Shown piece after piece: positions 320 to 8,917 of a stretch of DNA of 11,855 bases (position 1 is the first letter of the stretch; the number at the start of each line of letters is the position of its first letter). The DNA lies in the IMG/VR virus record IMGVR_UViG_2541047119_000012, positions 1 to 11,855 of that record. One strand, given 5' to 3'. The translations under genes were made by a program, and so were the position numbers. A model generated the notes under the pieces. The model was not told where the DNA came from, did not search any database, and saw only the letters and a program-made list of their open reading frames with translations. This stretch comes from a virus (Duplodnaviria > Heunggongvirae > Uroviricota > Caudoviricetes).

Positions 320-720
320 GTTCACAGATAAAACACTCTCCAGGAAACCCGGGGCGGTTCAGCCGCCCGGATGGATTGGGTTATGAGCCCGTCGTCCGGT
401 GATGCTCTTCTCTGTTTTGTAAAAAGGACGGTACCAGCCGGAAGCAAGGGTACAAGCTGGTACCGCTAAGACTACACACAGCATAAAGTTGTGGTGCCGG
501 GTGCCTCCCGGTGCCTGGCGAAGGTTGCACACCAGGCGGGTGGGTATCCACAGAAGGTCGACTGTCAGCCTCAACCTTAACCCGCGTGCGCTGAGCCGCA
601 TTCACCACAACGCTAAGGATTCTCTCTGGTTGAAAATACTTAGCTGTTATGTGCCTGTCTTTTCACCACTTCAGGCTCGGTGGTATCCTTTTAAGCCCGT
701 ATACATAAAAGGAAAATCAA

Positions 721-966
721 ATGACTTTTGATGAAAAAGAACTTGATAATGCAATTAATAAAATCATCGTAACGTCGCTCTTTTCCTGTCTCAGCGACAC
801 TCAGCAAAAACAGTTCTACGAATCGGCTTTCAACATGATCGAGCGTTGTTGTTTCTGCGATGCCGACGAGTTACCTGAAAAAATCAGGAAACAGTTGGCT
901 GATGCTCTTCGAGTGCGACTTTCTGACCAATTTTCTGAAATGTACTCTCCGAATTTGGACAAATAG
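721..966 (+). CDS. hypothetical small protein (81 aa)
   Basis: ATG preceded by AAAAGGAAAA Shine-Dalgarno-like sequence at about 8 nt. No recognisable motif. Overlaps the 3' end of the convergent ORF 884..1180. Confidence 0.35.
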   Translation: MTFDEKELDNAINKIIVTSLFSCLSDTQQKQFYESAFNMIERCCFCDADELPEKIRKQLADALRVRLSDQFSEMYSPNLDK

Positions 967-1180
967 AAAAAGGCCATTTCCATTCAGGGTCTGATGGAAA
1001 GACTTCAGCCTGTTCTAAAGCACGGCGTAAAGAGAACACAACTCCAGCCATAATCTGATGTTTCCCATTGGTCCAGCTATCGCCGCTCTGATCTACAGGG
1101 GCGGCTATGTCGTATGACCAAACGACTTCACAGTTATTGTTTAAAATCTGGACTTTCATTTCATACACCTGCTTTAACAT
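884..1180 (-). CDS. hypothetical small protein (98 aa, or 91 aa from the second Met)
   Basis: Leftward ORF downstream of the OL-like operators, the position of the first leftward gene (N) in lambda. An AGGTG sits about 7 nt before the second in-frame ATG. Not arginine-rich and no motif recognised. Confidence 0.3.
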   Translation of the reverse strand: MLKQVYEMKVQILNNNCEVVWSYDIAAPVDQSGDSWTNGKHQIMAGVVFSLRRALEQAEVFPSDPEWKWPFSICPNSESTFQKIGQKVALEEHQPTVS

Positions 1181-1366
1181 GAGTGCCTAGTGGCACAACA
1201 TGACTCAACGAATCATCCTGGACTTCATATGCCCCAGGCGGCTACTTCGTGGGCGTCCTGCCTGTTCGTTTTTGACATTTACTGACTGCTTACGACACAT
1301 GCACCGTGTTGCAACCAGATTTTGTTGTAATCCTGTAGTTGGTCTGGAATAAAAGATAAAATTAAA

Positions 1367-1403
1367 TTGCGAGATATGCAAGTGGTATTTGCGAGATATG
1401 CAA
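1367..1403. promoter_or_regulatory. OL-like operator pair: two identical 15-bp sites TTGCGAGATATGCAA (1367-1381, 1389-1403)
   Basis: Exact direct repeat with TTGC-N7-GCAA symmetry, the same pattern as the site TTGCGTGATAAGCAA in the cI-cro intergenic region. On the minus strand a TTGCAT -35-like hexamer overlaps the sites. Confidence 0.45.
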
Positions 1404-1415
1404 ATTTATAGGTAA

Positions 1416-1437
1416 TAAAAAGCCACCTTTCGGTGGC
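1416..1437 (-). terminator. intrinsic terminator downstream of the repressor gene (minus strand)
   Basis: GCCACC-TTTC-GGTGGC hairpin (1422-1437). On the minus strand it is followed by a T-run (plus-strand AAAAA at 1417-1421), about 20 nt past the cI stop. Confidence 0.6.
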
Positions 1438-1457
1438 CGATGGATGGGATATTGAGG

Positions 1458-2150
1458 TTAATTATGTCTCTTAAGGGTTTGCGACTGACTGATTAAGACC
1501 TTTCCAAAGACCATGAATCGGTGTTCGTTTTCGCTAGTAATTCCCCATTCACGGTAAATCTGGTTATCAGAAATCACCAGCAGTTTGTCAGGAATCATTT
1601 GAAGTCTTTTAACGTATATTTTGTCATCAAAACCAAAGACATATATACCATCACCATCAAACTGATTGATGCTGACATCAACGAAGATGAGATCTCCTGG
1701 CTCAATGGTTGGACACATACTGTCCCCACGAACGTTGATAACTTTGATGTGATTGGCTGGTCGTCCGCCGAACATTGATACAGCATTATCAGTTCTGTAT
1801 TCGATGGCATGAATCACATCAATGACATCACCGCCCTGGATAAGGCCATTTCCCGCACTGGCACTGATATCCAGCATTTCAATACGGAACACATCCTTCA
1901 CCTGCGCAACATCCTCATTATTACTGTTTTTATATACAGTATTACTTTTGTGGGCAGAGGTAAAGAGATCAGCAATATCAACACCTAAGCTCTTGGCAAT
2001 ATTACTCAGTGTTTGTTCGGTAAATTGTTTTTGCTTACCCGTTTCTAAGCGCGAGATGTTCGCCGCATCTACTCCTATCGCTTCAGCGAGATCGGCGATT
2101 TTCATGTTCTTCGCTTGGCGAAGTTGTCTGACTCGGTTTCCTATGTTCAT
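1458..2150 (-). CDS. cI: CI-type prophage repressor: N-terminal XRE-family HTH, C-terminal S24 (LexA-like) self-cleaving peptidase domain
   Basis: N-terminus MNIGNRVRQLRQAKNMKIADLAEAIGVDAANISRLETG is an HTH_XRE. C-terminus has GDSMCPTIEPGDLIFVD (catalytic Ser) and a downstream VKRL Lys, the S24 Ser-Lys dyad; Ala-Gly in ...SASAGNG... is a candidate cleavage site. Divergent from the cro-like gene. No SD before the ATG, so the mRNA is probably leaderless. Confidence 0.9.
   Translation of the reverse strand: MNIGNRVRQLRQAKNMKIADLAEAIGVDAANISRLETGKQKQFTEQTLSNIAKSLGVDIADLFTSAHKSNTVYKNSNNEDVAQVKDVFRIEMLDISASAGNGLIQGGDVIDVIHAIEYRTDNAVSMFGGRPANHIKVINVRGDSMCPTIEPGDLIFVDVSINQFDGDGIYVFGFDDKIYVKRLQMIPDKLLVISDNQIYREWGITSENEHRFMVFGKVLISQSQTLKRHN
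1922..1941. promoter_or_regulatory. LexA (SOS) box-like palindrome TACTGTTTTTATATACAGTA inside the cI coding sequence
   Basis: CTGT-N8-ACAG with an all-A/T spacer and TA flanks, close to the E. coli LexA box consensus TACTGTATATATATACAGTA. My by-eye scan of CTGT occurrences found no other copy in the window. Confidence 0.45.
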
Positions 2151-3387: not shown

Positions 3388-3407
3388 AGGTCGGTCATGA
3401 GCACTAA
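3228..3407 (+). CDS. candidate small protein (59 aa) with TTG start, not in the ORF track
   Basis: AAAGGAGA at 3212-3219, 8 nt before TTG at 3228. Translation [59 protein letters not shown] is protein-like. Stop overlaps the start of the replication gene. May instead be the 3' part of a frameshifted gene begun at 3049. Confidence 0.3.
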
Positions 3408-4338
3408 ATTAACCGGCTATGTATGGGATGGTTGCGCTGCGTCAGGCATGAAGTTATCCAGCGTGGCAATTATGGCCCGCCTGGCTGATTTCAGTAATGA
3501 CGAAGGTGTGTGCTGGCCATCAATTGAAACCATTGCCCGCCAGATTGGCGCGGGGATGAGCACCGTCAGAACGGCTATCGCACGGCTGGAAGCAGAAGGC
3601 TGGTTAACGCGTAAGGCGCGTCGCCAGGGTAACCGCAATGCGTCGAATGTTTATCAGCTTAACGTTGCGAAGCTTCAGGCAGCGGCATTTTCTCAACTGT
3701 CAGATTCTGACCCGTCAAAATCTGACGCATCAAAATCTGACCCGTCAAAATTTGATGCGTCGAAATCTGGCAAAAAAGCGGGTTTTCACCCGTCAGAATC
3801 TGGCGGGGATCCGTCAGTAAAATCAAAACATGATCCGTCAGATAAAAAACCTTCTCGTCCGGACGCTTCGCAACCGGACACGCAGACGGATGAACAGGAT
3901 TTTTTAACTCGCCATCCTGATGCGGTTGTATTCAGCCCTAAAAAGCGCCAGTGGGGGACGCAGGATGATTTGACCTGTGCACAGTGGCTCTGGAAAAAAA
4001 TCATCGCCCTGTACGAGCATGCCGCCGAATGTGACGGCGAGGTGGTTCGTCCCAAAGAACCGAACTGGACAGCCTGGGCAAACGAAATTCGCCTGATGTG
4101 TGTGCAGGATGGTCGTACTCATAAACAAATCTGCGAGATGTACAGCCGCGTCAGTCGCGATCCGTTCTGGTGCCGTAACGTGCTCAGCCCGTCGAAGCTG
4201 CGGGAAAAATGGGATGAGCTTTCCCTGCGCTTATCGCCGTCCGTCAGCACGTACACCGAAAAACGCGAGGACCCGTACTTCAAAGCCAGTTACGACAACG
4301 TGGACTACAGCCAGATCCCGGCAGGATTCAGGGGGTGA
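3397..4338 (+). CDS. lambda O-like replication initiator (N-terminal winged-HTH) with an internal iteron array
   Basis: N-terminus ...VAIMARLADFSNDEGVCWPSIETIARQIGAGMSTVRTAIARLEAEGWL is a wHTH. The repeat region encodes SDPSKSDASKSDPSKFDASKS. Position follows the immunity module as O does in lambda. Confidence 0.55.
   Translation: MSTKLTGYVWDGCAASGMKLSSVAIMARLADFSNDEGVCWPSIETIARQIGAGMSTVRTAIARLEAEGWLTRKARRQGNRNASNVYQLNVAKLQAAAFSQLSDSDPSKSDASKSDPSKFDASKSGKKAGFHPSESGGDPSVKSKHDPSDKKPSRPDASQPDTQTDEQDFLTRHPDAVVFSPKKRQWGTQDDLTCAQWLWKKIIALYEHAAECDGEVVRPKEPNWTAWANEIRLMCVQDGRTHKQICEMYSRVSRDPFWCRNVLSPSKLREKWDELSLRLSPSVSTYTEKREDPYFKASYDNVDYSQIPAGFRG
3706..3845. repeat. iteron array (putative replication origin): four tandem 15-bp units (3706-3765) plus degenerate copies to about 3845, followed by an A-rich stretch
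   Basis: TCTGACCCGTCAAAA / TCTGACGCATCAAAA / TCTGACCCGTCAAAA / TTTGATGCGTCGAAA at exact 15-bp phase; 3724-3734 and 3751-3761 are reverse complements. Further CCGTCAGA-like copies at 3789, 3810, 3834, then AAAATCAAAACA...GATAAAAAACC. Confidence 0.6.
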
Positions 4339-8030: not shown

Positions 8031-8783
8031 ATGAACTTTGAAGCCTTACCGAAATATTACTCCCCAAAATCTCCAAAATTGAGCGATGACGCACCGGCGA
8101 CAGGCTCTGGTGGTTTAACAATTACGGATGTAATGGCTGCGCAGGGGATGGTGCAGTCGAAAGCACCGCTTGGGTTTGCCTTATTCCTGGCAAAAGTTGG
8201 TGTTCAGGATCCTCAGTTTGCGATTGAAGGTCTGCTCAATTACGCGATGGCACTGGATAACCCGACATTGAACAAATTGAGTGAAGAAACCCGGCTACAG
8301 ATCATTCCTTACCTTGTGAATTTTGCCTTTGCTGATTATTCCAGGTCTGCGGCAAGTAAGGCTCGCTGTGAGCATTGTGCTGGTACTGGATTTCATGATG
8401 TATTGCGCGAGGTGGTGAAACACTCCAGAAGCGGGGAATCTGTTATCAAGGAAGAGTGGGTGAAGGAACTGTGTCAGCATTGTCATGGTAAGGGAGAAGT
8501 CAGCACAGCGTGCAGAGGGTGTAAGGGTAAAGGTATTGTCCTGGATGAAAAAAGAACCAGGCTTCATGGCACGCCTGTTTATAAGGTTTGTGGGCGTTGC
8601 AATGGAAACCGGTTTAGCCGTTTACCAACCACACTGGCGCGGCTTCATGTCCAGAAGCTGGTACCAGACCTGACGGATTATCAGTGGTACAAAGGATATG
8701 CAGATGTCATTGATAAACTGGTTACAAAGTGCTGGCAGGAAGAAGCGTATGCTGAGACACAATTGAGGAAAGTGACGAGATGA
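8031..8783 (+). CDS. Q: late-gene antitermination protein Q (phage 82 / QuuQ type, 250 aa)
   Basis: Four CxxCxGxG-type zinc-finger repeats (CEHCAGTG, CQHCHGKG, CRGCKGKG, CGRCNGN). Sits immediately upstream of a promoter plus short-transcript terminator. GGAG RBS. Confidence 0.8.
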   Translation: MNFEALPKYYSPKSPKLSDDAPATGSGGLTITDVMAAQGMVQSKAPLGFALFLAKVGVQDPQFAIEGLLNYAMALDNPTLNKLSEETRLQIIPYLVNFAFADYSRSAASKARCEHCAGTGFHDVLREVVKHSRSGESVIKEEWVKELCQHCHGKGEVSTACRGCKGKGIVLDEKRTRLHGTPVYKVCGRCNGNRFSRLPTTLARLHVQKLVPDLTDYQWYKGYADVIDKLVTKCWQEEAYAETQLRKVTR

Positions 8784-8843: not shown

Positions 8844-8890
8844 TTTCTCAATGATAGGCATTGTGTGTCCGGCTTTAATAAAAAGTAGAA

Positions 8891-8917
8891 AACCCGCTGA
8901 TGTGCGGGTTTTTTTTC
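8891..8917 (+). terminator. tR'-like intrinsic terminator
   Basis: AACCCGC-TGATGT-GCGGGTT hairpin followed by TTTTTTTT. Confidence 0.7.

Follow-up and report, generated by a model that had tools for sequence, protein, structure and literature searches.

A convergent gene pair beside a prophage repressor

When two small open reading frames (ORFs) converge beside a prophage repressor gene and overlap at their 3' ends, the question arises whether both are genes and, if so, what such a pair does for the phage or its lysogen. We addressed this question for a stretch of 11,855 nucleotides (hereafter the window; IMG/VR record IMGVR_UViG_2541047119_000012) that forms the early region of a lambdoid E. 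coli prophage resembling SfV. A sequence-only reading had described here an 81-aa ORF on the plus strand, with a strong ribosome binding site (RBS), and a 98-aa ORF on the minus strand (884-1180), overlapping by 83 bp, and had cautioned that one of them might be spurious. We confirmed the two open frames, their overlap and the RBS, and refer to the ORFs as ORF81 and ORF98. The elements of the pair are the following:

721-966, plus strand: ORF81 gene (81 aa, phrog_3311), antisense within the pL operon
709-715, plus strand: RBS of ORF81, AAGGAAA, ahead of the ATG at 721; invariant in all lineages
884-1159, minus strand: ORF98 gene, a coding sequence of 91 aa in a frame open to 1180 (98 aa); phrog_3195, orf33 of SfV
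1166-1170, minus strand: RBS of ORF98, AGGTG, with equivalents in other lineages
884-966, both strands: 3'-3' coding overlap of 83 bp

Several O157:H7 strains carry a prophage that matches the segment from 600 to 1460 with 100% identity and that in strain FRIK2455 adjoins tRNA-Thr; O157 Sakai, checked for locus tags, lacks this prophage. Around the pair, the window contains:

1-319: end of an IS3-family transposase gene, at the left edge of the window
419-641, minus strand: near-threshold STnc100-like sRNA (Rfam, 43 bits vs a gathering score of 47, E = 1e-6)
1346-1403, minus strand: OL/pL region with two exact operator repeats, TTGCGAGATATGCAA, at 1367-1381 and 1389-1403
1421-1438, minus strand: intrinsic terminator of the repressor gene
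1458-2150, minus strand: CI-like repressor, by domain matches (HTH and Peptidase_S24)
2248-2508: cro-like gene

As previously stated, ORF98 lies downstream of OL-like operators, and a third exact site of the form TTGC-N7-GCAA is present on the OR side (2171-2185). The hexamers TTGCAT (-35) and TATCTT (-10), as read from the sequence, would constitute a leftward pL promoter. ORF98 is in the sense orientation downstream of OL/pL and opens the leftward early (pL) operon; a structured leader RNA is all that separates it from pL. The description of the locus as N/rex-equivalent holds insofar as ORF98 occupies the N position, but its product is acidic, and ORF81 runs opposite to the direction of rexAB. 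The pair does sit, as had been proposed, at a repressor-adjacent position where accessory and defence genes occur, and it is uncharacterised; a literature search returned nothing on SfV orf33 or the accessions.

Several other features of the window lie further from the pair. At the left, the 3' end of an IS3-family element (IS1203/IS629-like, 1-353) stands where FRIK2455 and SfV have the early-left genes yfdP/yfdQ/yfdR, and homology to these prophages begins at about 354-360. The STnc100 model was matched over its full length at 419-641, though below threshold, with a terminator-like hairpin at the 3' end; STnc100 is reportedly related to the PasD sRNAs (bioRxiv 10.64898/2026.05.13.724894), and RefSeq labels this region a 'frameshifted hypothetical protein'. 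At 3690-3780, within the replication gene (3397-4338), tandem repeats of ~16 nt (TCTGAC..GTCAAAAT) encode the repetitive sequence DPSKSDASKS and look like origin iterons within an O-like initiator gene; they also produced a false miRNA match in Rfam. A strong hairpin with a U-run (AAAACCCGCTGATGTGCGGGTTTTTTTT; 8854-8917, plus strand), located 3' of the Q-like antiterminator gene (8031-8783), gave weak leader/AgrB-type Rfam matches and is probably the terminator that Q reads through.

Both frames are conserved protein-coding genes

Both proteins matched PHROG profiles over their full length (ORF81, phrog_3311, E = 3e-55, residues 1-81 of 81; ORF98, phrog_3195, E = 6e-70, residues 1-98 of 98), each profile carrying the label 'unknown function'. 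Protein searches yielded a diverged homologue of ORF98 (P0012, 64% identity) from a Klebsiella-type locus, L007, the opposite strand of which holds a 76-aa homologue of ORF81. Homologues of ORF81 with 56-62% identity were found in Klebsiella variicola, K. oxytoca, K. michiganensis, Salmonella enterica and Yersinia enterocolitica, and the conservation and synteny check by tblastn that had been proposed earlier placed an ORF98 homologue opposite the ORF81 homologue in every Klebsiella, Salmonella and Yersinia locus. The ATG-to-ATG spacing in the diverged loci is exactly the 439 nt of the window (721 to 1159), without a single indel, and the genes are inherited together, in the same position and orientation, across E. 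coli, Klebsiella, Salmonella and Yersinia prophages despite different repressors and flanks.

Within E. coli, the cassette was found in 425 of 5,426 complete genomes (~8%), with up to four copies per genome, and both ORFs are intact in all 156 of the ungapped E. coli-type copies, whose common polymorphisms are mostly synonymous. No relatives turned up in two scans of species-representative genomes. Most of the 'divergent' database matches were rejected as homologues, being frameshift or recombination-junction variants. One junction recurs at about window position 922, where the first ~67 codons of ORF81 are fused to unrelated sequence adjoining a tail protein gene (E. coli genomes H201-H205; proteins P0033 and P0044).

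Annotators disagree on this locus, each listing one ORF: PGAP (91 aa from 1159) and the authors of the SfV genome (orf33, 98 aa) annotated the minus-strand ORF alone, while RAST on phage vB_EcoM-720R4 and the recorded gene calls of the Klebsiella, Salmonella and Yersinia loci list the plus-strand ORF alone. This disagreement lends itself to the view that one ORF is spurious, a mere antisense shadow of its partner, a view against which the selection tests speak clearly. In Nei-Gojobori counts between the window and L007 (66.5% DNA identity), the ORF98-only part gave a pN of 0.184 and a pS of 0.849 (Fisher p = 1.4e-14) and the ORF81-only part a pN of 0.184 and a pS of 0.860 (Fisher p = 1.3e-11), i.e., a pN/pS of ~0.2 for each annotated frame outside the overlap, whereas the other five frames contained stops and gave ratios of 0.3-5.8. 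Non-overlap parts had a pN/pS of 0.17-0.57 in 10 of 10 lineage pairs, and variable columns were concentrated at third codon positions (22, 17 and 44 at positions 1, 2 and 3 of ORF81; 30, 17 and 51 in ORF98). With both frames conserved as protein over four genera at a pN/pS of 0.2-0.35, these findings indicate that both ORFs are real, conserved protein-coding genes, contrary to the earlier suspicion, and the shadow explanation is effectively refuted, retaining in our judgement a negligible probability.

Within the overlap, codon position 1 lies opposite position 1, and position 2 opposite position 3. The ORF81 frame is still constrained there (pN/pS 0.4-0.7), and the ORF98 frame (aa 65-85) is near neutral (0.5-1.4). 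The read-through tails of ORF98 in other genera, which extend it to 122 or 162 aa, show a pN/pS above 1 in most comparisons and are merely the antisense image of ORF81. As for the other end of ORF98, the frame is indeed open to 1180, giving the 98 aa described, but its true start is most likely, indeed almost certainly, at 1159 (91 aa, as in PGAP), because all diverged homologues begin with MKVQIL and an RBS precedes that ATG (ATGAAAGT) in every lineage.

Putative expression signals on the two strands

Both genes are preceded by conserved elements:

653-689, plus strand: promoter-like block, GCCTGTCTTTTCACCACTTCAGGCTCGGTGGTATCCT, marked by cross-genus conservation
662-667, plus strand: candidate -35 of the block, TTCACC
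681-689, plus strand: candidate extended -10 of the block, TGgTATCCT
1203-1272, minus strand (pL-sense): sharply bounded structured RNA element of 70 nt between pL and ORF98

The block lies 31 nt ahead of the ATG of ORF81 and, in comparisons that span E. coli, Klebsiella, Salmonella, Yersinia and Edwardsiella, shows stronger conservation than the coding DNA. Within it, two inverted repeats overlap and interleave (GCCTG/CAGGC and ACCAC/GTGGT); Yersinia shows one compensatory variant. The block might work as a promoter, as an operator or as a pseudoknot-like leader; we infer that it acts as a promoter. A search for TTGC-N7-GCAA operators found none near the block, and its presence in prophages with unrelated repressors makes immunity control unlikely. 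Given this operator-free promoter-like block of its own and its strong RBS, ORF81 is probably a moron-type gene that the lysogen expresses constitutively. The window held no convincing terminator for ORF81, only a weak candidate at 1249-1265.

The block is conserved while its cargo varies widely (see below), and the plus-strand unit always faces pL, both of which lend some weight to the idea that this unit works mainly as RNA, its convergent transcript insulating or tuning pL and the ORF81 peptide being secondary. However, the ORF81 protein is under strong purifying selection, with synonymous change saturated, and its RBS is invariant; we consider this idea improbable.

The leader RNA ahead of ORF98 was found in 49 phage records from many genera, always 120-170 bp past the 3' end of the repressor gene, and is annotated in none of them. 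Both the outer stem and the 3' hairpin predicted for it show covariation, with double compensatory changes in 11 of 14 pairs and 96.4% of cells paired; none of 500 shuffles reached these values, slid registers collapsed, and the loops are invariant. No match to positions 1203-1272 was found in Rfam. Identity with the put element of HK022 was rejected, as our covariance model (R1) found nothing above 10 bits in the HK022 genome, and within the window the same model detected this single copy. In the Yersinia loci, the element is located beyond the cassette, on its far side; in L007, it is separated from the ORF98 homologue by an additional ORF of 105 aa (3664-3981) that matched no PHROG. Judging by its position, the element may serve as a leader or in antitermination in a phage that has no N-like protein.

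Two small acidic proteins outside known families

Both proteins are acidic and soluble (ORF81, pI 4.6; ORF98, pI 5.0 and a net charge of -4), with a maximum 19-residue hydropathy below 0.9 and no hydrophobic segment. Searches of Pfam, NCBIfam and PADLOC gave no significant match for either, and a sequence search of the PDB returned nothing, in agreement with the earlier statement that neither protein is N-like or belongs to a named family. Structure prediction, which had also been proposed, was productive for one of the two: the AF2 model of ORF81 is a predicted three-helix bundle (pLDDT 80.6, confident in 2 of 5 models), for which Foldseek found no match below E = 1 in the PDB or BFVD, while the model of ORF98 cannot be relied on (pLDDT 52.7). 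Only 20 proteins were retrieved when 1.84 billion representatives were scanned exhaustively with an ORF81 profile in HMMER. We considered the CCxC motif of ORF81 as a conserved metal site and rejected it, because distant members lack these cysteines.

Membership of ORF98 in the lambda N family was dismissed, the protein being acidic rather than arginine-rich and without a Pfam or NCBIfam match, as was a Rex/SieB-type membrane abortive-infection system, there being no transmembrane segment and no PADLOC match, and ORF81 pointing toward cI. The genes of known type II toxin-antitoxin systems share one direction, and a type I toxin is a hydrophobic peptide countered by a non-coding antisense RNA. 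The present genes are convergent and their domain searches empty, which excludes them from the former type; their products are soluble and acidic, and both strands code under selection, which excludes them from the latter. With empty searches and this acidic, soluble character, the two proteins are not N, Rex, SieB or a known toxin-antitoxin pair.

A looser relationship of this kind would have ORF98 as a host-damaging early lytic protein like Kil, with the ORF81 protein, its antisense mRNA or both guarding the lysogen from pL leak. The first pL position is a frequent site of host-takeover genes, complete antisense overlap of the transcripts is expected, and the two genes are co-inherited. However, neither protein has toxin or antitoxin domains or transmembrane segments, the arrangement departs from both types described above, and a distant relative of ORF81 exists without ORF98 (see below). 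On balance, we find such a relationship unlikely.

A slot with exchangeable gene pairs

Scanning viral contigs for the block, as GCCTGYYTTTTM-ACCAC-N9-11-GTGGTATCYT, gave at least 64 matches with full left context (loci L195-L313), and on these contigs the block stands 29-34 nt ahead of the start codons of small ORFs, at least 12 of them unrelated. Among the matches listed, most of the cargos face a minus-strand ORF, with an overlap of 23-83 nt (23-59 nt for cargos other than ORF81), and those of L204, L221 and L273 have no overlapping partner. In phage SfII, the segment corresponding to 688-1088 of the window is replaced and the block retained; its cargo is a different, 63-aa acidic ORF (phrog_2605), overlapping by 39 nt with a convergent minus-strand partner (phrog_15476/phrog_2982-like), and ORF98 is left as a 23-codon stump. 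As SfII is a deposited complete phage genome, the ORF81/ORF98 pair appears dispensable. Diverged homologues of both SfII ORFs (37% and ~45% identity) are present in Edwardsiella phage EPP-1, where they are convergent, overlap by 33 nt, have the same block upstream and adjoin a LexA-type repressor. Profile-profile comparison detected no relationship between the SfII/EPP-1 pair and ORF81/ORF98.

A third pair, at L252 and L295, is conserved on both strands, as judged from translations inspected by eye. The minus-strand partners at L211 and L295 (120 and 138 aa) open with CxxC...CxxC like a ClpX-type zinc ribbon, a hint that host chaperones or proteolysis may be engaged by some of the partners on the lytic side. 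At L186, a distant relative of ORF81 occurs as a stand-alone moron with no ORF98 partner, furnished with its own promoter (TTAACC-17-TAAAAT) and a strong terminator, and lies antisense between the Q antiterminator and a DUF4760 gene on one side and the holins on the other.

The two genes might also be independent accessory neighbours, their overlap a matter of genome compaction and their co-occurrence a matter of close physical linkage only. Relatives of ORF81 found alone, cargos of the same block without an overlapping partner and the almost unconstrained ORF98 frame in the overlap are all in keeping with this explanation. Against it stand the fixed geometry of the pair over four genera and several immunity types, and the recurrence in the same slot of unrelated convergent overlapping pairs that are exchanged as pairs. 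We regard such independence as a doubtful but serious possibility.

Comparison with known prophage systems

In phage phi80, taiEcA lies antisense inside a Q-dependent operon, adjoining atiEcA, and TaiEcA protein is present in the lysogen (PMC11364771). There is hence precedent for a lysogeny-expressed immune gene placed antisense in a lytic operon, beside a lytic-cycle counter-defence gene (PMC11364771; PMC8585504), and the need for cognate self-immunity has been documented for BstA/aba (PMC8585504). Similarly to TaiEcA/AtiEcA and to Tha of S. aureus phages (PMC11364771, PMC11087260), ORF81 interrupts a lytic operon in the opposite orientation and adjoins its gene ORF98; the position of ORF81 within the pL operon, immediately after ORF98, is the architectural hallmark of a Tai/Ati-like locus. 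Likewise, the antisense gene would be expected to be on in the lysogen and its partner in the lytic cycle only, and the pair is co-inherited. The ORF81 relative at L186 sits, like taiEcA of phi80, between Q and the lysis genes. Unlike the Tai/Ati and Tha systems, to which we found no sequence or fold similarity, ORF81/ORF98 lies in the early pL operon rather than a late one, overlaps by 83 bp and encodes much smaller proteins (81 and 91 aa).

Other comparisons are more partial. ORF81 resembles the lambdoid morons, units of promoter, gene and terminator set between conserved genes, in having its own promoter-like block and RBS and in its presence/absence and replacement polymorphism (as in SfII), but in the window it has no clear terminator and is joined by the overlap to a gene on the opposite strand, and its block is a shared portable element serving many cargos. 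With BstA/aba of Salmonella phage BTP1 and lambda RexAB it shares the neighbourhood of the repressor gene and the concept of a prophage defence that requires self-immunity; yet bstA and rexAB are co-directional with cI and encode large or membrane proteins, whereas ORF81 points toward cI, and the self-immunity element of BstA is DNA, not protein. A direct link to bstA/aba was rejected: the RBS string common to both loci is coincidental, block and leader RNA are both absent from BTP1, and bstA is co-directional with cI. Lastly, as in type I toxin-antitoxin loci, pR/pL of coliphage 186 and oop/cII of lambda, convergent, 3'-overlapping transcription could repress reciprocally, but here both strands encode conserved soluble proteins, with no hydrophobic toxin and no dedicated antisense RNA.

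A model for the pair

We propose that the pair is a conserved two-gene accessory cassette of lambdoid prophages, SfV-like ones included, arranged as a noncontiguous operon, in which ORF81, expressed in the lysogen, would interfere with other phages and ORF98, expressed early in the lytic cycle, would be its antidote. This proposal ranks first among those considered, because the anatomy fits the noncontiguous-operon arrangement and the need for cognate self-immunity is documented, and we hold it tentatively, at somewhat short of an even chance. It draws on architecture, and the defence and antidote roles are speculative. The promoter activity and the timing of expression that it presupposes for both genes are likewise our reading of the sequence.

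In this proposal, ORF81 would be on in the lysogen from its own block, and ORF98 would be made solely upon induction or infection, under repressor control. Since the genes converge and overlap, their transcription may interfere reciprocally: in the lysogen, ORF81 transcription would enter ORF98 antisense and silence pL leak, while after induction, transcription from pL would cross all of ORF81 antisense and dampen it. The two small acidic proteins would be a cognate antagonistic pair, ORF81 giving the lysogen a function, most likely interference with other phages, and ORF98 serving as the prophage's own early antidote; the overlap would hold the pair linked when modules recombine. Antisense silencing is not a given, since in phi80 the level of TaiEcA protein was not lowered by induction with mitomycin C, though it was by overexpressed Q (PMC11364771). 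Also counting against the proposal are the size of ORF81, which as a soluble helical protein of 81 aa is small for a defence effector, the cargos of the block that face no overlapping partner, the lack of a convincing ORF81 terminator in the window, and the sequence and fold searches, which gave no functional clue. Still, the idea that exclusion or defence functions reside here appears to gain support from the architecture, i.e., an antisense gene in a lytic operon, a variable hotspot and swapped pairs.

A wider proposal, which we advance with considerable doubt, is that the slot between the portable rightward promoter block and pL is an undescribed hypervariable hotspot of Enterobacterales lambdoid prophages. 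It would swap cognate modules, each consisting of a lysogen effector and a convergent, 3'-overlapping antidote encoded by the first pL gene, with ORF81/ORF98 as one among many defence and self-immunity pairs whose proteins are very small; the covarying leader RNA nearby would regulate the early transcript in a new, protein-independent way, e.g., as an antiterminator.

Significance

As annotation pipelines each report one gene of a cassette carried by ~8% of complete E. coli genomes, one real protein is systematically missing from the databases. The pair is also a clean natural case of dual-strand coding, which involves 83 nt in E. coli and, in other genera, up to the whole of ORF81 inside an antisense open frame. 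If the architecture means here what it means in Tai/Ati, the slot would be a compact, searchable source of small anti-phage effectors and their cognate inhibitors, and the conserved promoter block would be the handle with which to search for such pairs.
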